From: a virus
Direction: 5' to 3' (one strand)
DNA: 11,783 nt
IMG/VR virus record: IMGVR_UViG_3300022235_000070
The position numbers and the translations under genes are program-made. Positions 1-11,783 of the stretch are shown in pieces. Position 1 is the first letter of the stretch, and each line of letters opens with the position of its first letter. The notes beneath the pieces are model-generated. The model saw nothing but the letters and a program-made list of their open reading frames with translations. It did not search any database and was not told the DNA's origin.

Positions 1-119
1 GGCCGCCATATCGTTAATTACCAGGGCCAGCGCAAGGACGGCGACCCTGTACTTAATAGACTTCTGCAGGTGCAGCCTAACCCGTACATGACGGCCTACG
101 ACCTGCAATATAAGCTGGT
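1..119. repeat. Terminal overlap: nt 1-119 identical to nt 11665-11783 (circular closure or assembly overlap; unit length 11,664 bp)
   Basis: Base-by-base comparison of the first and last 119 nt shows identity throughout. The repeat lies inside one continuous reading frame (portal). Confidence 0.95.
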
Positions 120-1029
120 TGTTCACTACTACCAGCACAACACTTCTTTTGCCTTCCTGCAGAAGAACGAGCGGGGCGACCTAGAAGCAATATGGCCGCT
201 GAAGCCTTTAAGCATGGAGTTTGTAACAGACCCGACTGGGGAACTTTATTGCAGGTTCATATTCGCAGGCGGTAGGACAGTTATTCTGCCCTTCCGCGAT
301 GTGCTGATCCTGCGCAGACACTTTAACACCAATGACCTGCTGGGGGACACCAACACGGCCATTCTGCCGACCTTAGACCTGGCCCATACGCAGAGCGAAG
401 GCCTGCGGAACGCCATTAAGCAGGGCGGTACTGTTCGCGGCATATTGAAATATAACCAGGTTTTGAGCGATGAAAAGCTGCGGGAAAGCAAGGAAGCCTT
501 TATTCGTGATTACTTGACCGTGGCCAATGAGGGCGGTATTGCGGCCCTGGACGCGAAGGCCGACTATGTACCACTTGAGATGAAGCCCTATTCTATTGAC
601 GATAAGCAGCTGAAGGCCATTAAAGACAAGGTTTACAGTTACCTGGGTATTAGCGAGGCCATTGTAACCAGTAGCTATGACGAAAACGAATGGGCTGCCT
701 TTTATGAAAGCGTGTTGGAACCCATAGCCCTGCAATTAAGCCTGGAGCTAACCAGCAAGGTGTTTACACCGCGGGAGCAGGGTTTTGGGAACATGATTAT
801 TTACGAGAGCCAGCGGCTGCAGTACGCCAGCGCACAGAGCAAGGTAAACATCATCAAAGAGCTGCTGCCCTATGGCCTATTCACTATTAACGAGGCCAGG
901 GAAATTTTGAACCTGCCTGCGGTAGAAGGCGGCGACAAGCGGCTGCAGACCCTAAACGTTGTTAGTGCAGACCTAGCGGACAAGTATCAGATGGAAGGTG
1001 ATCTGGATGAAAGAAATTCGGATAGCTGA
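1..1029 (+). CDS. Portal protein, HK97 family: C-terminal 342 codons. The ORF continues from 11491..11664 across the circular junction (400 aa total).
   Basis: Frame 1 is open from nt 1 to TGA 1027-1029, and the same frame runs from TTG 11491 through the overlap. The joined translation (MSIFSRLFGR...GKLKGRHIVNYQG...QPNPYMTAYDL...YESQRLQYASAQ...) has the size and N-terminal pattern of HK97-type portals. It sits directly upstream of a prohead protease and an HK97 capsid gene. Track ORF 70..1029 is only the internal GTG-to-stop part. Confidence 0.85.
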   Translation, partial: GRHIVNYQGQRKDGDPVLNRLLQVQPNPYMTAYDLQYKLVVHYYQHNTSFAFLQKNERGDLEAIWPLKPLSMEFVTDPTGELYCRFIFAGGRTVILPFRDVLILRRHFNTNDLLGDTNTAILPTLDLAHTQSEGLRNAIKQGGTVRGILKYNQVLSDEKLRESKEAFIRDYLTVANEGGIAALDAKADYVPLEMKPYSIDDKQLKAIKDKVYSYLGISEAIVTSSYDENEWAAFYESVLEPIALQLSLELTSKVFTPREQGFGNMIIYESQRLQYASAQSKVNIIKELLPYGLFTINEAREILNLPAVEGGDKRLQTLNVVSADLADKYQMEGDLDERNSDS

Positions 1030-1594
1030 ATTAAGGGCTATTGGAGACCCGATTGATGATAACGCTTTAATTCTGGAGGGCAGGCCCTTAGTGTATGACC
1101 AGCCCACGGTAATTAAAGAGAAGTTTGGCAGCTTTACAGAAGTGATCCGCGCAGGTGCCCTGGACGGTGCCGACCTATCGGATACGCGGTTACTATACAA
1201 CCACGATTTAAGCAGGATTCCGCTTGCGCGGACACCCAAAACAATGCGGCTGAGCGTAGATCAGGCAGGCCTGCGCATGGTGGCATTGTTGCCTGATACA
1301 GAAGAGGGCCGCAGCGTGTATACGGCAGTAAAACGCGGCGACCTTTCAGGCATGAGCATTGCGTTCGTGGTGGCCGATGGCGGCAGCCATTACGACCCGC
1401 GGACGAACACCAGGACTATAACCAAGATCAAGAAGATCCTGGAGTGCAGCGTGGTTCCGTTCCCTGCATACCCTACGACTTCGGTAGAAGCTAGGGCAGA
1501 GATACAGGGGGCCTGGGACAAGCTGAACGACCCTGCAAGAAAAGCCCTTATTATCAGGGCTAACCGAATACGATTAAGGAGTGTTGACATATGA
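1007..1594 (+). CDS. Prohead (capsid maturation) protease, HK97 family (S78/U35)
   Basis: ATG 1007 is preceded by GGAAGGTGA; GTG 998 is an alternative start. The ORF overlaps the portal stop. It has the motifs LLYNHD (catalytic His context) and GMSIAF (Ser context). Its stop overlaps the capsid start (ATGA at 1591-1594). Confidence 0.85.
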   Translation: MKEIRIAELRAIGDPIDDNALILEGRPLVYDQPTVIKEKFGSFTEVIRAGALDGADLSDTRLLYNHDLSRIPLARTPKTMRLSVDQAGLRMVALLPDTEEGRSVYTAVKRGDLSGMSIAFVVADGGSHYDPRTNTRTITKIKKILECSVVPFPAYPTTSVEARAEIQGAWDKLNDPARKALIIRANRIRLRSVDI

Positions 1595-6375: not shown

Positions 6376-6573
6376 ATGGAGGATGAAAGACAAAACTGGG
6401 CAAAACATGGGCTGCCTGAAGGGTGGACAAGGGCCACCTTTATTGTTCGCCAGGACTTGCTGGAGAAGCTGAAAGATCATGCCTGGACGGAGCGAATGAC
6501 CCTCAAAGAGGCCGTGGAGCAGATGATGGCCGATTATTTGGCAGACAAAAGCCCGCTGCCGCGCAGAAAGTGA
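6376..6573 (+). CDS. Ribbon-helix-helix (CopG/Arc/ParG-like) DNA-binding protein
   Basis: RBS AAGGGGGGA is upstream. The product is 65 aa. RATFIVRQDLLEKLKDHAWTERMTLKEAVEQMMADYL fits a beta-strand plus two helices, the RHH layout. Confidence 0.6.
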   Translation: MEDERQNWAKHGLPEGWTRATFIVRQDLLEKLKDHAWTERMTLKEAVEQMMADYLADKSPLPRRK

Positions 6574-6602
6574 TTTTTTGCGGACGTTGGCTGAAAAACG
6601 AA

Positions 6603-6700
6603 GCCCTAGAATGGCCCAGGACGGGCGAAAACGCATGGGGTAAGGGTTTTATATGCCTGTTTAAAATGGCCCTTAGAGCGCACCAGGCGGCCCAGGAGCA
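6603..6700. repeat. Two tandem partial copies (A1, A2) of a repeat whose third copy (B) follows the primase-polymerase stop
   Basis: ATGGCCCAGGACGGGCG at 6611-6627 is identical to 10779-10795, and similarity continues to about 6648 versus about 10822. A2 (GCCCTTAGAGCGCACCAGGCGGCCCAGGA, 6668-6696) parallels GCCCTCTGACGCACCAGGATGGCCCAGGA at 10762-10789. Confidence 0.85.
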
Positions 6701-6714
6701 AAGAAGGGGTTTAG

Positions 6715-6972
6715 CTGGGCATTTGCTACGCCGCGAGCTGCACTGAGGATGAGTTCAGTTCAACTGAAGTCATCGAGCAAACCCCGCGCGCGCGCGAGCT
6801 GCACCAGGTGTCCGATTTCGGACACGTCATCGTGCACCGAGGCAAACCCCACGCGCAGGGGTGAGACCGGGGTGTGGAAATATTTCCACACCCTGCTTCT
6901 GCGCCTTTGTCGCTTAGGGAAATGTTTCCCGAAGCGTTTTTAGGGCAAACCCCATGAGCGCGAGAGCTACAG
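6715..6972 (+). repeat. Array of four degenerate ~29-nt direct repeats separated by palindrome-containing spacers (32, 36 and 74 nt)
   Basis: Repeats: R1 6715-6743 (only its 3' 12 nt CGCGAGCTGCAC match R2), R2 6776-6804, R3 6841-6869, R4 6944-6972. GCAAACCCC is exact in R2, R3 and R4. R2 versus R4 is 22/29 and R2 versus R3 is 18/29. Spacers hold a 27-nt near-palindrome (6748-6774), GTGTCCG-ATTT-CGGACAC (6808-6825), a perfect 24-nt palindrome GGGTGTGGAAATATTTCCACACCC (6870-6893), and the hairpin at 6911-6936. Confidence 0.8.
6911..6941 (+). terminator. Candidate intrinsic terminator inside the repeat block
   Basis: CGCTTAGGGAAA-TG-TTTCCCGAAGCG forms a 12-bp stem with one A/G mismatch, followed by TTTTT (6937-6941). 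Confidence 0.5.
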
Positions 6973-7025
6973 TTTACAGAATACGGTGGCAGTTTTCATA
7001 ATGTTAGTTATGCGAAGTAACAGCA

Positions 7026-7047
7026 AGCCCTCTAGCTGGGCTTTTTT
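7026..7047 (+). terminator. Candidate intrinsic terminator closing the long rightward (late) transcription unit
   Basis: AGCCC-TCTAGCT-GGGCT is followed by TTTTT(T). A second small GCG-TTG-CGC hairpin plus T6 follows at about 7048-7070. The next promoter starts about 55 nt downstream. Confidence 0.5.
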
Positions 7048-7106
7048 GCGTTGCGCTTTTTTATTCATTCAGACGCACAAATAAAGAATATTTATTAGGG
7101 GTGTTT

Positions 7107-7149
7107 ATGTGAAAATGGGGTTGACTATATGAAAATGTTACGCTATACT
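7107..7149 (+). promoter_or_regulatory. Sigma-70/SigA-type promoter (TTGACT-17-TATACT) flanked by two 11-nt direct repeats
   Basis: -35 TTGACT at 7121-7126, a 17-nt spacer, -10 TATACT at 7144-7149. ATGTGAAAATG (7107-7117) and ATATGAAAATG (7127-7137) are 10/11 identical and 20 nt apart, bracketing the -35. Confidence 0.7.
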
Positions 7150-7361: not shown

Positions 7362-7598
7362 ATGACAAAATGGGAAGTTGTATCAGTGAGGCCCATACCA
7401 GGAAGTAATGGCCGTGGGTTTGAGGTGGAGGTTCGGGAAACGATGAAGGAAACGATTAAGGAAGGATGGATGGGCGAACTTATTGAGATTGCGAGCAGGC
7501 TGCCGAATGTTGAGTTGAAAAGATTGTTGTGGTTCGCCAGAGCCTTCGAGAAACAAGTAAAAGAGGGCGCACCAGCGGGAACCAGTGAAGCCCTCTAA
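7362..7598 (+). CDS. Hypothetical protein (78 aa)
   Basis: RBS AAGGAGGA is upstream of ATG 7362. It is tightly spaced after the HTH gene. No recognisable motif. Confidence 0.55.
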   Translation: MTKWEVVSVRPIPGSNGRGFEVEVRETMKETIKEGWMGELIEIASRLPNVELKRLLWFARAFEKQVKEGAPAGTSEAL

Positions 7599-7971: not shown

Positions 7972-8341
7972 TTTGACAGTTAGAGAAGCTGCAGAACAGC
8001 TAGGTATTAGTGAAAAAACAGTACGCAGACGCATTAAGAACGGTTCCCTTCCTGCCGAGCTGAAGCAAGGGGACTATGGACAACAATACTTTATTCCTGC
8101 CGATGCTATCGAAACAGCCCAAGCCATTACAGACGTTGTGGAAGTTAAGCGTGTACACGATGTCCAGGCCTTGTCTATGGCCGTTGTCCAGGCCCTGGAC
8201 GAAAGAAACAAGACCCTGGAGAGTGAGCTTGCAACCATTCGTGAGGAATTGGCAGCCACAAGGGAGGCCTTGCAGAAGCTGCAGGAAACATTAACCCAAC
8301 AACAGCGACCAAGGGCGTGGTGGAGGTTCTGGGAGAAATAA
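7961..8341 (+). CDS. MerR/excisionase-type HTH protein with C-terminal coiled coil (126 aa)
   Basis: GTG 7961 is preceded by GGAAGGGTGG; GTG 7952 and TTG 7973 are alternatives. LTVREAAEQLGISEKTVRRRIKNGSLPA is an HTH. The C-terminus LESELATIREELAATREALQKLQETL has a heptad-like pattern, followed by an aromatic/basic tail RPRAWWRFWEK. Confidence 0.7.
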   Translation: MQGYLTVREAAEQLGISEKTVRRRIKNGSLPAELKQGDYGQQYFIPADAIETAQAITDVVEVKRVHDVQALSMAVVQALDERNKTLESELATIREELAATREALQKLQETLTQQQRPRAWWRFWEK

Positions 8342-9333: not shown

Positions 9334-10761
9334 ATGGCAAAACTAACGGCAGTAAGACAAGTACCAAGCGAAACATTGAAGAAGGCCACGGAATACATAA
9401 CTCGCGGATGGGCCTTAATACCCTTTTCGCCAATAAGCAAGAACCCGTTATTTGACCTGCTGCCACTTTCAGAGGACGGCCAAGGCGTAAGCTGGAAGCC
9501 ACTGGCCAAGAACAAGGCCACAGTAGAAGTTGTTCAAAGGTGGCTAGAAGCATGGCCTAATATGAATTTGGGCATTATATGCGGCCAGGCAAGCGGGATC
9601 GTTATCATTGATACTGATAAACCTTTAAGGTGGCCGATGGAATACCTCACCCCAACGGTTAAGACTAGGCGAGGCTATCACTATTACCTAAAAACCGACC
9701 GGCCTTATAAGAGCGTGGTAATTAAAAGCAAAACGGGCGAAGCATACGGAGAACTTAGAGCCGAAGGAAACGTTACAATAATTCCACCTTCAACACACGT
9801 TGAAACAGGCCAGCCCTATGAATGGGTGGATGGTTTAGGAATAGATGATGTTCCTATGCAACCGATCACCAAAAACCTTATAAAAGCCTTTGTTAAGCTG
9901 AACCCTCACCTTGAAGAAATAACCCTGGAAGAAGATCGAAAACGGATTGAAGCAAGAAAGAATATTCTTCCTTGCTTCAATGAACCCAGGCCCTATAATT
10001 CTGAGCAAGACGCGGTGGTTCGTTCCAGTATTCCCTACATGGAATACCTTCAGGATCCGCGCGTGGTAATTAGCATAATGCAAGAAATGGGTTGTGATGT
10101 GAAGGCATTGGGCCAGGCGTTTAGTTGCCCTATTCATGGCCCAGATGAACACCCCAGCGCAGCGTTATATGTTCCTCATGACGAAGGTTTTATTTCCATG
10201 ATGGACTTTCACAATAGAAAACTAGTGCCTATTCCTGATCTTTACGCGGCCCACGTTAAAGGCAAATATGAACCGTTAGGCACAGGTGAAAGGGCCTTGT
10301 GGTGGATTCGCTGTTTGGTGGATCACGGCTACATTGATTACCCCAGAATATTAGCACGACCGTTACCCGAAGAAGCACCTGAAGCGGCTAAAGAGCTTTA
10401 CAAGGGTTTTGTCATGCTGCTGGGAATTCGCAAGCTGTACAATGCAGATCAGACAGCAACACCATTTTCCTGGCGGTTCGCGGCTGGATGGTGTGGCGGT
10501 TTAACTAACTACAAGATCAAACAAGGCATGGCCTGGTTATTAAAGCACGGCTTCATTCACAAGACGGGAACCACTTCAAGCAGAACGGCCCTATTTGCTT
10601 TACAGCCTGCCGAGGAAACTGCTGCTGTGGCCACGACAGAGGCGGGAAAAACGCAGGTGTACAATTTTGTACACCACGCAAATCAGGATCACCCCGCGCA
10701 TGCGGGAACAGACATCCGGGAAAATTTTCCCGGAAGTGAGCTTGTCCCTTTTCCAGAATAG
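9334..10761 (+). CDS. Primase-polymerase (AEP superfamily, Prim-Pol N-terminal domain) with uncharacterised C-terminal half; no helicase motifs seen
   Basis: RBS GAGGGGGAAG is upstream of ATG 9334. The motifs are RGWALIPFSP, NLGIICGQASGIVIIDTDKP (DxD), TRRGYHYYL (sGxH) and VTIIPPSTHVETGQPYEW. No GxxxxGK[ST] motif occurs anywhere in the 475 aa. Confidence 0.85.
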   Translation: MAKLTAVRQVPSETLKKATEYITRGWALIPFSPISKNPLFDLLPLSEDGQGVSWKPLAKNKATVEVVQRWLEAWPNMNLGIICGQASGIVIIDTDKPLRWPMEYLTPTVKTRRGYHYYLKTDRPYKSVVIKSKTGEAYGELRAEGNVTIIPPSTHVETGQPYEWVDGLGIDDVPMQPITKNLIKAFVKLNPHLEEITLEEDRKRIEARKNILPCFNEPRPYNSEQDAVVRSSIPYMEYLQDPRVVISIMQEMGCDVKALGQAFSCPIHGPDEHPSAALYVPHDEGFISMMDFHNRKLVPIPDLYAAHVKGKYEPLGTGERALWWIRCLVDHGYIDYPRILARPLPEEAPEAAKELYKGFVMLLGIRKLYNADQTATPFSWRFAAGWCGGLTNYKIKQGMAWLLKHGFIHKTGTTSSRTALFALQPAEETAAVATTEAGKTQVYNFVHHANQDHPAHAGTDIRENFPGSELVPFPE

Positions 10762-10822
10762 CCCTCTGACGCACCAGGATGGCCCAGGACGGGCGGAAAT
10801 ACACAGGGGGTAGTTAGGGGTT
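10762..10822. repeat. Copy B of the GCCCT...CGCACCAGG...ATGGCCCAGGACGGGCG repeat
   Basis: It starts immediately after the primase-polymerase stop. The 17-nt exact match (10779-10795) to 6611-6627 is flanked by imperfect similarity on both sides. Confidence 0.85.
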
Positions 10823-10909
10823 GCCTTAATCACTTCGGGGCCTAGAAACGGCTTAAAAACGCTTGGAGGTGTTGGATATGCCTAAAACCATACAGAAGGG
10901 ATGGCCGTA

Positions 10910-11490: not shown

Positions 11491-11783
11491 TTGAGCATAT
11501 TCAGCAGACTGTTTGGACGAACGAAGCAGCCAGAGGGAGCTGCCAGGGCCGAAGTATTGAGCGGCAGCCCAGCGTTCTTTACACCATTTAGCGGGAACGC
11601 ATGCGAAAACGATATTTTTAGGGCCGCGGTGGACGCGATAGCCAGGAACGCAGGCAAGCTAAAGGGCCGCCATATCGTTAATTACCAGGGCCAGCGCAAG
11701 GACGGCGACCCTGTACTTAATAGACTTCTGCAGGTGCAGCCTAACCCGTACATGACGGCCTACGACCTGCAATATAAGCTGGT
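11491..11783 (+). CDS. Portal protein N-terminal part (continues at nt 120 after removing the duplicated 119 nt)
   Basis: TTG 11491 lies 5 nt after GGCGGTGA and 2 nt after the CSD stop. The frame is open to the window end and is in frame with nt 1..1029. The track does not list it because it has no stop inside the window. Confidence 0.75.
   Translation, partial: MSIFSRLFGRTKQPEGAARAEVLSGSPAFFTPFSGNACENDIFRAAVDAIARNAGKLKGRHIVNYQGQRKDGDPVLNRLLQVQPNPYMTAYDLQYKL
11665..11783. repeat. Terminal overlap, second copy (identical to 1-119)
   Basis: See the first feature. Confidence 0.95.

Follow-up and report, generated by a model that had tools for sequence, protein, structure and literature searches.

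What is the cluster of short repeats and palindromes that lies at the 3′ end of the late operon in IMG/VR virus record IMGVR_UViG_3300022235_000070, and how far does its resemblance to a CRISPR array go? The window studied here is the whole 11,783-nt stretch of that record, and the cluster occupies positions 6715-6972 in it. A first-pass annotation, made from the sequence alone, had offered three roles for this block: a structured multi-hairpin ncRNA, a solitary-repeat RNA decoy of the RNA anti-CRISPR (Racr) type, or an array of operator or centromere-like sites for an adjacent RHH protein.

Anatomy of the array

Exact copies of GCAAACCCC occur three times in the 11.8-kb window (at 6777, 6842 and 6945), all within 6777-6953, against an expectation of 0.20 (shuffle mean), and at least three copies were reached in 0 of 200 shuffles, so the repeat cluster described in the first-pass annotation is real and far beyond chance. 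CGCGAGCTGCAC is present as exact copies at 6732 and 6793, and the reported recurrence of GTCATCG was found at 6769 and 6826. The regular placement of the repeats was likewise seen correctly, with gaps of 33, 37 and 77 nt instead of the 32, 36 and 74 nt first given, the repeat boundaries having been drawn differently (Table 1). The description of four repeats of about 29 nt needs more revision: R2 and the terminal repeat measure 28 nt and R3 26 nt, and R1 is repeat-like over half of its length. R1 has form A in about half of the relatives, the remainder carrying a hairpin-containing form B. Tandem Repeats Finder did not pick up the array in the window.

The stretches between the repeats are palindromic, as had been noted, with 8-bp rather than 7-bp arms in the second hairpin. 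Unit 1 folds with an MFE of -14.1 (z = -5.4), and the same unit (family f) is also present in L226, L285, L286, L287, L288 and L290. The family of unit 2 (C) occurs in both orientations among relatives, as does family G of the 77-nt stretch, whose second palindrome has 12-bp arms with one mismatch at 6911-6936 followed by T5. In L208, two inverted I-E-type repeats flank the homologue of this second palindrome, which carries a compensatory change from G-C to C-G. The 77-nt stretch is two units fused through loss of the intervening repeat and, with one repeat lost and one hybrid, the window holds a short, partly decayed array. Compared with shuffles, the fold of the block has z = -5.6 and -6.0 on the two strands. 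The block had rightly been called noncoding, since relatives differ in the number and content of units and the sole ORF across it (6749-6943) therefore cannot be conserved; it had also been described as closed by terminators, and one + strand terminator was found, at 7025-7049.

Table 1. Features of the two arrays and their surroundings in the window
Feature	Position	Strand	Description
65-aa gene	6376-6573	+	Final gene of the late (capsid/packaging) operon; from the ORF list
Conserved leader	6574-6718	+	Between the 65-aa gene and the array; nearly invariant among relatives
Decayed copy of the late-operon terminator, AAGGGGTTTAGCTGGGCATTTGC	6704-6726	+	Left arm and T-run gone
R1, GCATTTGCTACGCCGCGAGCTGCAC	6719-6743	+	Leader-proximal, diverged; 3′ half alone matches the family repeat
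Unit 1, 33 nt	6744-6776	+	Palindrome 6748-6774, 13-bp arms, 1 mismatch
R2, GCAAACCCCGCGCGCGCGCGAGCTGCAC	6777-6804	+	Canonical 28-nt family repeat; without stem-loop
Unit 2, 37 nt	6805-6841	+	Palindrome GTGTCCGA/TCGGACAC at 6808-6825, 8-bp arms, then tail
R3, hybrid, 26 nt	6842-6867	+	5′ half is family repeat; 3′ half AGGGGTGAGAC is I-E-type repeat
Fused double unit, 77 nt	6868-6944	+	Perfect 24-nt palindrome 6870-6893, plus palindrome and T5 6911-6941
Degenerate terminal repeat, GCAAACCCCATGAGCGCGAGAGCTACAG, 28 nt	6945-6972	+	Fixed in nearly all relatives
Conserved trailer	6973-7049	+	Ends in an intact intrinsic terminator, stem 7025-7043 and T-run
Second array	10641-10735	-	Overlaps the 3′ end of the PrimPol ORF
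Second array, truncated repeat	10641-10652		Listed in + strand order
Second array, palindrome	10656-10675
Second array, full I-E-type repeat	10686-10713	-	Reads GTCTGTTCCCGCATGCGCGGGGTGATCC on the - strand
Second array, palindrome	10715-10734

A family of variable arrays with type I-E dimensions

Two DNA pattern scans, one of IMG/VR for a 14-nt pattern and one of a metagenome collection for a gapped pattern, were unspecific and gave mostly chance matches, and a script picked out the arrays among the matches listed. The 41 related arrays, from at least 20 metagenomes, have near-identical flanks, while the internal units between them vary in content and number from 0 to 7, with none in L249. The layout runs from the leader through a diverged first repeat, 0-7 units and a fixed degenerate terminal repeat to a terminator. 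Each family unit consists of the repeat GCAAACCCCACGCG(CG)CGAGCTGCAC and an insert, and the earlier description of a unit as a hairpin plus a conserved linker fits the whole family well. The repeat, of which the 41 arrays hold about 130 copies, is 26 or 28 nt long (rarely 25, 27 or 29), the 26-nt form having lost one CG. Insert length ranges from 27 to 46 nt with a mode of 33 nt (50 of 124 short inserts), which together with the 28-nt repeat gives the 61-nt period of type I-E systems; the type I-E geometry first suspected in the window alone thus extends across the relatives.

Type I-E arrays of the E. coli type have a 28/29-nt palindromic repeat, 32/33-nt spacers, a leader and a degenerate last repeat, and Cas6e recognizes a 6-7-bp stem with a tetraloop. 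Shared with them are the 28-nt repeat (26 nt without one CG), the 33-nt modal insert and the 61-nt period, a leader on one side with a fixed degenerate terminal repeat opposite, the insertion of one unit in both orientations and, in relatives, mixing and hybrid repeats with genuine I-E repeats. The differences are equally clear. The dominant family repeat has no Cas6e-type stem-loop (-4.7 kcal/mol, z = +0.9), so Cas6e/Cascade should ignore most of the array; the inserts (27-46 nt overall; 33, 37 and a fused 77 in the window) follow a looser ruler than is usual for Cas1-Cas2 and, instead of being unique foreign sequences, belong to a common stock of palindromes; the element has no cas genes; and the scan of 185,579 species genomes gave the family repeat in two contigs only, both copies of the element. 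A hypervariable orphan array, which we read as CRISPR-derived, is a hallmark of this element family, and the block in the window is its copy.

The order of units points in two directions. In the pairs L272/L191, L286/L237 and L126/L119, units are shared on the trailer side and differ on the leader side, which is a CRISPR-like polarity. Other arrays share both end units and not the middle, hold one unit family twice or are partly inverted, and such patterns fit recombinational shuffling better than polarised acquisition. In L270 and L275, arrays are inverted relative to the operon.

Palindromic inserts maintained by compensatory change

Palindromes with arms of at least 8 bp account for about 80% (58 of 71) of the unique inserts, which argues against free sampling of DNA by an integrase, as this should give ordinary sequence. 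The inserts form 35 families common to multiple arrays, and their palindrome centres always consist of an A-run followed by a T-run, many being perfect through the centre. Watson-Crick pairing at arm positions 5-12 was 0.69-0.97 compared with 0.26-0.39 for shuffled arms, and four pair types occur, indicating that the palindromes are under constraint and kept by compensatory changes. The stems show no G·U enrichment, with 8 G·T and 7 A·C mismatches among 579 pairs. Median MFE of the inserts is -14.1 kcal/mol versus -5.8 for genuine I-E spacers. Members of the pool are exchanged among elements, between both arrays within an element and from one orientation to the other; for example, the first 33 nt of a unit in L237 and L286 recur in L127 as an exactly reverse-complementary 33-mer. 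No protospacers outside the arrays were found in related loci or in IMG/VR. Because the dominant repeat lacks the Cas6e stem-loop and the inserts are palindromic, lie in both orientations and have no outside protospacer, this is not a working type I-E array; the palindromic spacers suggest instead that it mimics the host type I-E machinery or arises from it as a by-product.

Stable hairpins at the end of an operon might instead act in RNA, as a structured 3′ untranslated extension that shields the late mRNA from 3′ exonucleases in REP-like fashion or as the multi-hairpin ncRNA of the first-pass annotation. The hairpins are very stable, their arm complementarity is maintained by compensatory change and, with the upstream terminator decayed and the downstream one intact, the array should be co-transcribed with the operon. 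Against this stand the missing G·U enrichment among stem mismatches, the perfect centres in which loop positions are themselves complementary in many units, the strand-symmetric folding, the units in both orientations and, in L270 and L275, arrays that run opposite to the operon. Protection would also need no more than one or two hairpins, and L249 exists without internal units. An Rfam scan of the window returned nothing, although Rfam missed the genuine I-E array of L191 as well, so that this null is uninformative on CRISPR repeats. We consider a role of this kind improbable, and the ncRNA claim is poorly supported.

The same observations sit better with palindromes that matter as DNA. The REP/BIME sequences of enterobacteria are palindromic units with conserved linkers at operon 3′ ends; their palindromes have one or few sequences per genome in alternating orientation, and the genome encodes a RAYT transposase. 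A REP/BIME-like palindrome array that doubles as a cargo hotspot, the intergenic region between late and early operons being prone to recombination and open to exchange of accessory DNA such as CRISPR arrays, with the I-E repeats as passengers and the units either selfish or serving recombination, replication priming or DNA topology, would account for the lack of a G·U excess, the A-run/T-run centres, the equal folding of both strands, the mosaic unit order and the occurrence of units and array segments in both orientations. Like REP/BIME, the arrays are tandem palindrome-plus-linker units in an operon 3′ untranslated region, vary in copy number and receive insertion sequences in palindrome centres. 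Cargo lies between or inside units: in L126, 560 bp of inserted DNA that contain a Zn-ribbon membrane ORF; in L274, a lipoprotein-like ORF; in L222/L276, an RHH antitoxin-like ORF; in L263, an IS1595-like transposase that has entered a palindrome at its centre; and in L191, a whole I-E array. Array-less relatives have similar palindromes in the same region: in the distant relative L266, which lacks the repeat, they are scattered through the same intergenic region, and the palindromes may therefore predate, and be independent of, the CRISPR-like repeats. However, a purely DNA-level array leaves unexplained the 28-nt repeat with its 33-nt modal insert and 61-nt period, the hybrids with I-E-type repeats and the asymmetry between leader and terminal repeat. 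REP units of one genome share one sequence, whereas the palindromes here all differ (at least 35 families) and the linker is the conserved part, and the window yielded no gene for a transposase, a recombinase or a RAYT-like protein. On balance this account is possible, if rather unlikely.

An integron cassette array was also considered and rejected. Integrons pair an IntI integrase with attC sites in which R″/R′ core sites (RYYYAAC ... GTTRRRY) flank an imperfect palindrome. Here no integrase was detected in the window or in close relatives read full-length, the flanks (…GCTGCAC / GGCAAAC…) by inspection are neither mutually complementary nor of the core consensus, and long inserts lie in palindrome centres or replace units instead of being bounded at a fixed core site.

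Genuine type I-E repeats and a second array

L191 contains 17 copies of GTTTACCCCGCATGCGCGGGGATCGACC with a 61-nt period and ordinary spacers, nested in the same locus, and these spacers had no match in related loci. The hybrid repeat R3, GCAAACCCCACGCGCAGGGGTGAGAC, is also present in L127, L152, L258, L264, L270 and L275, and in L264 it heads four I-E-type repeats (CGGTTCCCCCCACGCGCAGGGGTGAGAC) with a 61-nt period. The I-E-like character attributed to R3 thus stands for its 3′ half, while its stem of 5 bp around a 7-nt loop is weak and folds no better than shuffles. No exact match to the R3-type sequence was found in IMG/VR.

A better solitary I-E repeat lies outside the block first annotated, at 10686-10713 on the - strand, within a second array (Table 1). 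It has a 6-bp stem and a tetraloop (-10.2 kcal/mol, with -12.7 for the L191 repeat), and unrelated viral contigs (L291/L292) share its 21-nt core including the stem-loop, with repeats of this family arranged in a mini-array or standing alone. In L152 and L283, the second-array repeat is present in 2-3 copies at a period of about 61 nt (59-61 nt start to start) with palindromic spacers. Coding constraint on the second array (the ‘ENFP’ motif at the end of the PrimPol ORF) was rejected, as paired substitutions ignore codon position. Duplex pairing of the family repeat with I-E repeats was about 2 sd better than shuffles, both strands alike, and an ‘anti-repeat’ pairing idea was dropped because the duplex energies were uninformative.

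These repeats bear directly on the proposed Racr-type RNA anti-CRISPR, in which transcripts of R3 and/or of the 10686-10713 repeat would bind Cas6e/Cascade in dead-end complexes, the inserts being non-targeting filler. Racrs are single repeats that need an intact Cas6-binding stem-loop, have a promoter of their own directly upstream and are often found beside acr genes, and Racrs active on I-E systems have been demonstrated (Camara-Wilpert et al. 2023, PMC10651486). Like Racrs and viral mini-arrays, the locus places sequences similar to CRISPR repeats on a mobile element that lacks cas genes. The family arrays truly include I-E-type repeats, and in unrelated viral contigs a solitary repeat of the 10686-10713 family directly precedes a gene. 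Only that repeat keeps the canonical stem-loop, which neither R3 nor the family repeat has, whereas a published Racr was inactive once its stem-loop was disrupted (PMC10651486). A simple consensus scan found no promoter directly upstream of R3 or on the - strand near the second array. R3 as a Racr-type decoy is accordingly not borne out, with a stem no better than shuffles, no promoter of its own and no R3-type sequence in IMG/VR; the arrays are mostly stem-less, reach 7 units and have palindromic spacers without identifiable targets, and neither the palindromes nor the 0-7 unit variation is explained. Taking both repeats together, we regard a Racr function as unlikely.

Some viruses bear mini-CRISPR arrays whose spacers target their relatives (Medvedeva et al. 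2019, PMC6858448), and the second array invites the same reading here, namely a working mini-array directed at palindromic elements of rival satellites. The commonest array-1 unit among relatives is matched at 24/24 positions, in reverse complement, by window 10712-10735, and array-1 units of some elements match the array-2 palindromes of other elements and not their own; thus, the L119 unit TTCCGGGAAAATTTTCCCGGATGT matches window 10712-10735 at 24 of 24 positions, while L119's own copy differs at two symmetric positions. These matches, however, end at the palindrome core plus a few nt and are flanked by repeat-like sequence, which makes them homologous units rather than protospacers, and the flank at the would-be PAM position resembles a repeat end. 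As Cas6e cannot process the dominant repeat and no outside protospacers were found in related loci or IMG/VR, active targeting is scarcely credible.

Upstream gene, leader and terminators

The 65-aa gene is invariably found directly upstream of the array, and its homologues are confined to this element family; more distant homologues (P0002 and P0005) are present without the repeat array. The first-pass annotation had named it an RHH gene, an assignment that our searches did not sustain: the 65-aa protein had no match in Pfam, PHROGs or PDB sequence searches, and with its AF2 model (pLDDT 77) Foldseek gave Arc/CopG-type matches, mostly RHH repressors, that were non-significant (E > 2). An RHH fold may be suspected.

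An operator or parC-type centromere would be expected to pair an RHH DNA-binding protein with a cognate set of identical sites and, where it serves partition, with an NTPase. The 65-aa putative RHH protein might use the array in this way, as a late/early switch or for partition of an integrase-less circle, and a circular element without a detected integrase may indeed need a maintenance function. The constant position and restricted distribution of the gene and the RHH repressors among its weak structural matches fit such a role, and the direct repeats are identical enough to be candidate sites. Yet the fold is not established, no partition ATPase or GTPase is present in the window, the distant homologues lack the array and repeat number varies from 0 to 7. 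The palindromes, moreover, all differ and their arms co-vary freely, unlike sites for one protein, so the operator or centromere role first proposed appears very improbable.

Within the conserved leader, a motif of about 50 nt occurs twice, with the core ATGGCCCAGGACGGGCGAAA (6611-6630) and a third copy at 10779-10798, and the leader RNA is unstructured (fold z = +1.0). In the alignment, array-less relatives L266 and L268 have an intact hairpin, AAGCCGTTTAGCTGGGCTTTTG, where the window has the decayed terminator, which also aligned to the window's own terminator at 7025-7049. A + strand scan found no terminator between the 65-aa gene and the array. With the upstream copy decayed, transcription should read into the array, and the intact terminator downstream further argues for read-through transcription across it.

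The element that carries the array

Carrier elements are circular and about 11-13 kb in size (about 11.7 kb for that of the window). Their gene set comprises HNH, TerS, TerL, portal, protease, major capsid, connector and head-completion genes, together with a primase-type replicase and AlpA/excisionase-like HTH genes; genes for tail, lysis or Cas proteins are absent. They resemble phage satellites with capsid and packaging genes only. Similar to cf-PICIs, they combine the capsid/packaging set with a primase-type replicase and an AlpA/excisionase-like HTH gene at about 11.7 kb and lack tail and lysis genes. They differ in that no integrase was detected in the window or in close relatives read full-length, the contigs being circular or concatemeric, in their host, an uncultured anaerobic-digester bacterium, and in the CRISPR-like arrays, which have not been described for cf-PICIs as far as literature searches went.

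Megablast of the whole window against GenBank phages gave no match, and no tRNA or tmRNA was found in it. No identical protein turned up for the HTH gene, whichever start codon was assumed, and the relatives were reached via homologues. The array of L270, inverted and beside a tRNA-Trp on a 38-kb chromosomal contig, might mark an integration site; the tRNA 3′ end is unmatched in the window, and close relatives are circular or concatemeric. Genome bins conflict on the host, short contigs falling in Chloroflexota bins and one 38-kb contig carrying sporulation-associated genes, Coat_F among them.

Origin and possible role of the array

Our preferred reading, held tentatively and at a little under even confidence, is that the locus is a CRISPR-derived orphan array that was built by host Cas1-Cas2 and acts as a non-targeting mimic or lure for the host I-E machinery. 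We infer the involvement of Cas1-Cas2, and any decoy effect, from the form of the array: Cas1-Cas2 is proposed because it duplicates a 28-bp repeat, inserts 33 bp either way, binds cruciforms and integrates beside cruciform-prone inverted repeats. E. coli I-E adaptation inserts one protospacer in both orientations (PMC4027179), and Cas1 and Cas1-Cas2 have cruciform affinity and a corresponding integration preference (PMC5389526). The duplicated terminator around the array fits seeding beside a cruciform-prone hairpin, given this preference (PMC5389526).

As a CRISPR-derived lure, the array would have been seeded at the late-operon terminator and then built or reshuffled by the host type I-E Cas1-Cas2 integrase. 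It would be transcribed by read-through from the late operon. Both its repeat-like sequences and its palindromes, which are prone to form cruciforms, might lure or occupy the host I-E adaptation and crRNA machinery, while the self-complementary spacers and the stem-less repeat would keep the products harmless to the element and its helper. That the array is specifically a decoy or ‘spacer sink’ for Cas1-Cas2 (and, via the I-E-type copies, for Cas6e/Cascade), or alternatively a neo-CRISPR birth at the terminator hairpin, is a possibility that we regard with some doubt.

Nivala and co-workers are said to have described, in 2018, off-target ‘neo-CRISPR’ integration by Cas1-Cas2. Off-target integration beside cruciform-prone inverted repeats was described by Nunez et al. 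2015, as summarised in PMC5389526. Common to such events and the present arrays is a 28-bp non-canonical sequence duplicated around inserts of about 33 bp and, going by that summary, a start at a cruciform-plus-AT-rich site of the kind preferred in vitro, here a decayed terminator hairpin with its T-run. In contrast, those events, as summarised, arose in vitro or under over-expression and involved single ordinary spacers, whereas the arrays here are natural, widespread and multi-unit, with palindromic inserts.

Viruses are already known to carry orphan CRISPR arrays, mini-arrays and solitary repeats. As far as literature searches went, what appears to be unreported is the combination seen here: an array of I-E geometry with almost exclusively palindromic spacers maintained by compensatory change and a repeat without its former processing hairpin, carried by a capsid-only satellite-like element that has genuine I-E repeats as well. 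Should Cas1-Cas2 be lured by the palindromes or act on them, the locus would represent a new anti-CRISPR or anti-adaptation strategy and a natural test bed for array birth at non-canonical sites and for cruciform recognition in spacer integration. A decoy or sink would amount to a novel type of anti-CRISPR working through both DNA and RNA, and a neo-CRISPR birth would reveal a hitherto unknown bias of the adaptation machinery for palindromic substrates. If the palindromes are independent REP-like units, the locus would show a satellite cargo slot that recruits and degrades CRISPR arrays. With short sequences and clear assays the locus is experimentally tractable in either case.

A hypervariable, CRISPR-shaped array at the end of the late operon

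The block 3' of the 65-aa gene (array 1) belongs to a family of CRISPR-shaped, hypervariable arrays with type I-E metrics. The repeats and palindromes reported for it (6715-6972) in the first-pass annotation are present as stated: the window has three exact copies of GCAAACCCC, at 6777, 6842 and 6945, against a mean of 0.20 per dinucleotide shuffle and as many copies in none of 200 shuffles; the repeat tail CGCGAGCTGCAC has exact copies at 6732 and 6793; and a repeat finder returned a 27-nt family and four palindromes. The block folds far more stably than its shuffles, to a similar degree on the two strands (z = -5.6 and -6.0), and the 170 nt 5' of it fold poorly (z = +1.0).

The first relatives aligned have near-identical flanks and differ in repeat number and intervening sequences. 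Across 41 non-redundant related arrays, the shared plan runs from a leader through a first repeat that is diverged (a hairpin form takes its place in some arrays), 0-7 units and a degenerate, fixed terminal repeat (GCAAACCCCATGAGCGCGAGAGCTACAG) to a trailer with a terminator, each unit being a 26/28-nt family repeat, GCAAACCCCACGCG(CG)CGAGCTGCAC, plus an insert; one relative (L249) has zero internal units. Short inserts range from 27 to 46 nt, with exactly 33 nt in 50 of 124, and 28 + 33 nt gives 61 nt, the type I-E period. Three array pairs (L272/L191, L286/L237 and L126/L119) have common trailer-side units and different leader sides, other pairs are mosaics, and two arrays (L270 and L275) are partly inverted; metagenome assembly may mis-join at repeats, but the same junction types occur in independent samples.

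Coordinates of the array features, related loci and inserted sequences
Feature	Contig	Position	Strand	Description
R1	window	6719-6743		diverged first repeat
R2	window	6777-6804		canonical repeat
R3	window	6842-6867		hybrid repeat
Terminal repeat	window	6945-6972
Palindrome	window	6748-6774		13-bp arms, one mismatch
Palindrome	window	6808-6825		8-bp arms
Palindrome	window	6870-6893		perfect 24-mer
Palindrome	window	6911-6936		12-bp arms, one mismatch, then T5
Leader motif, two copies	window	6600-6718		core ATGGCCCAGGACGGGCGRAAA
Leader motif, third copy	window	10760-10830		beside second array
Upstream terminator copy	window	6704-6726		AAGGGGTTTAGCTGGGCATTTGC
Trailer	window	6973-7049		invariant
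Promoter-like site	window	6973-7002		TTTACA-18-CATAAT
Terminator	window	7025-7049	+
Tandem 20-nt repeats, two	window	7098-7137		GGGGTGTTTATGTGAAAATG / GGGTTGACTATATGAAAATG
Predicted early promoter	window	7121-7149		TTGACT-17-TATACT
Short 12-nt tandem repeats	window	7436-7463, 8161-8194		Tandem Repeats Finder
Second array	window	10641-10735	-	truncated repeat, palindrome, full repeat, palindrome
Full I-E-type repeat	window	10686-10713	-	GTCTGTTCCCGCATGCGCGGGGTGATCC
End overlap	window	1-119, 11665-11783		direct, 119 nt
Canonical I-E array	L191	about 540-1545	-	in place of one unit
Two-ORF insert, 560 bp	L126	608-1171		includes Zn-ribbon membrane ORF; exactly at A/T-rich palindrome centre
IS1595-like transposase gene	L263	3240-3637		exactly at A/T-rich palindrome centre
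Gene fragment	L127			between/inside units
Lipoprotein-like ORF	L274			between/inside units
RHH-antitoxin-like ORF	L222/L276			between/inside units
GTATTCCCCGCATGCGCGGGGTGATCC copies	L291	1006-1026, 3190-3410		unrelated viral contig
GTATTCCCCGCATGCGCGGGGTGATCC copy	L292	625-645		unrelated viral contig
Third repeat type	L119	3960-4110		GCCACATTGTCSCKGG... on one strand
Third repeat type	L283	4520-4680		GCCACATTGTCSCKGG... on one strand
Symmetric assembler N	L289	4680-4760		TTCCGNNAAAATTTTCNCGG; CCCCNGGAAAATTTTCCNGGGG
Element copy	L270	8989-9830		mostly inverted array and early region

Type I-E repeats in both arrays

The likeness to type I-E repeats noticed earlier reflects a real link, with hybrid and genuine I-E repeats sharing the array-1 locus across the family. 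In one relative (L191), a canonical array of 17 GTTTACCCCGCATGCGCGGGGATCGACC repeats at a 61-nt period replaces exactly one unit between two family repeats; its 33-nt spacers are ordinary, and none of the 16 matched the loci examined here. Another (L264) has four CGGTTCCCCCCACGCGCAGGGGTGAGAC repeats at the same period, headed by the hybrid GCAAACCCCACGCGCAGGGGTGAGAC, which is identical to R3 and is also found in L127, L152, L258, L270 and L275.

The L191 repeat and the full repeat of the second array fold into a 6-bp stem with a tetraloop, as expected of Cas6e substrates, and so does the E. coli repeat used as a control. The best that R3 achieves is a 5-bp stem closing a 7-nt loop, equalled by shuffles, and the dominant family repeat gave no stem on folding. 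Published RNA anti-CRISPRs (Racrs) require a stem-loop (PMC10651486); the proposal of a Racr-type decoy is weak for R3, with its poor stem, but plausible for the second locus, which has a canonical stem-loop and is the better solitary-repeat or Racr candidate.

The second array, with this proper I-E repeat, extends over the end of the PrimPol ORF on its 3' side. Relatives contain its repeat in 2-3 copies with palindromic spacers, the repeat starts being 59-61 nt apart (a ~61-nt period). The same repeat family occurs as a solitary repeat and a four-repeat mini-array in two unrelated viral contigs, classic cases of either kind. The solitary unit lies just 5' of a gene judged portal-like by eye, and the mini-array spacers are ordinary. 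Beyond the second array, some relatives have a third repeat type that also alternates with palindromes, so that palindromes are what several repeat families have in common.

Palindromic inserts and the origin of the array

The first set of 55 unique inserts had a median MFE of -14.1 kcal/mol with a mean z of -3.5, compared with -5.8 and -0.65 for L191's 16 genuine spacers. In a larger set of 71 unique units, palindrome arms reached at least 8 bp in 58 and at least 10 bp in 52. At arm positions 5-12, where all four Watson-Crick pair types are present, pairing was 0.69-0.97 versus 0.26-0.39 with right arms shuffled among units, and orthologous palindrome positions contain double substitutions. 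For example, the palindrome beside the second array is CCGGG...CCCGG, CCAGG...CCTGG or CCGCG...CGCGG depending on the element, changes that disregard codon position in the overlapping ORF. In one related contig (L289), assembler N at symmetric positions in two palindromes suggests that compensatory variants co-exist within one sample.

Mismatches in 579 stem pairs comprised 8 G·T, 7 A·C, 12 C·T and 5 A·G, with no enrichment of G·T; at palindrome centres an A-run always precedes a T-run (for example AAAATTTT and AAATGTTT), and in many palindromes the symmetry continues unbroken across the centre. Such features mark DNA palindromes, not RNA hairpins, and, together with the inverted arrays, disfavour a multi-hairpin noncoding RNA. 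Operator or centromere sites for an RHH protein are disfavoured because the palindromes are so diverse, an NTPase is absent, the RHH fold is unproven, and homologues of the 65-aa gene exist without the array.

The locus also receives other sequences, and the inserts in L126 and L263 lie exactly at palindrome centres, which therefore act as insertion targets. Under the main rival explanation, which we consider improbable, the palindromes are autonomous REP/BIME-like DNA units, and the CRISPR repeats came along as passengers in a cargo slot prone to recombination. No unit copies were found outside arrays in the related loci examined or in IMG/VR scans, except for one similar palindrome in an array-less relative (L266). 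The units form ~35 families, common to different elements and to both arrays; at least six occur in both orientations, asymmetric tails included, and one 33-mer, when reverse-complemented, is identical to another unit's first 33 nt. In E. coli, I-E adaptation is known to place one protospacer in either orientation (PMC4027179).

We tentatively favour a CRISPR-derived orphan array that the host's I-E integrase would have created and reshuffled, that would be transcribed by read-through, and that may act as a non-targeting mimic or decoy. Most of the weight of this possible reading falls on the CRISPR-derived orphan array, and the decoy function taken alone is rather unlikely. Arrays with palindromic, hairpin or self-complementary spacers were not found described in full-text literature searches; the nearest known cases are virus-borne orphan arrays, mini-arrays, solitary repeats and Racrs, off-target Cas1-Cas2 integration, and REP/BIME arrays.

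Flanking terminators

A simple scan identified one plus-strand terminator 3' of the block and none between the 65-aa gene and the block. The last 23 nt of the leader align both with this terminator and with the intact hairpin-plus-T-run AAGCCGTTTAGCTGGGCTTTTG located directly 3' of the 65-aa gene in array-less relatives, so the array and trailer sit between two terminator copies. Both the left arm and the T-run are missing from the upstream copy, from which we infer that late-operon transcription reads through the array, and the flanking copies suggest that the array may have been seeded where a T-rich run adjoins a hairpin prone to cruciform formation. Published work describes Cas1-Cas2 integrating at this type of site with no CRISPR present, and cruciforms bound by Cas1 (PMC5389526).

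The promoter-like site in the trailer lies ~20 nt before the strong terminator and, if used at all, would give an RNA of ~40 nt. The ~50-nt leader motif is without RNA structure, and its third copy is reversed in orientation relative to its array; candidate roles are integrase anchoring, a promoter or a protein site.

Carrier element and host

The overlap of its ends shows that the window represents a whole circle of ~11.66 kb. It encodes portal, prohead protease, major capsid, connector, HNH, small and large terminase and head-completion proteins, along with two excisionase-type HTH proteins, a PrimPol-type replicase and a cold-shock protein; genes for tail, lysis and Cas proteins are absent, and the analysis detected no integrase. 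Given this capsid and packaging set, and relatives assembled as circles or one 18-kb concatemer, the element looks like a cf-PICI-like capsid-forming satellite and may be episomal.

The family comes from biogas, wastewater and digester metagenomes, and the host assignments within it conflict. Two contigs of <2 kb are binned in Chloroflexota. A 38-kb chromosomal contig (L270; NCBI JBJSVV010001155.1) with sporulation-associated genes (Coat_F, for example) and a tRNA-Trp gene abuts an element copy, which may be an integrated relative and hint at the host. This copy lies ~240 nt downstream of the tRNA-Trp gene, and the contig terminates within the element. In the window, the tandem 20-nt repeats overlap the predicted early promoter before an excisionase-type HTH gene and are probably an early-operon operator, and the short 12-nt tandem repeats lie within early-region ORFs.
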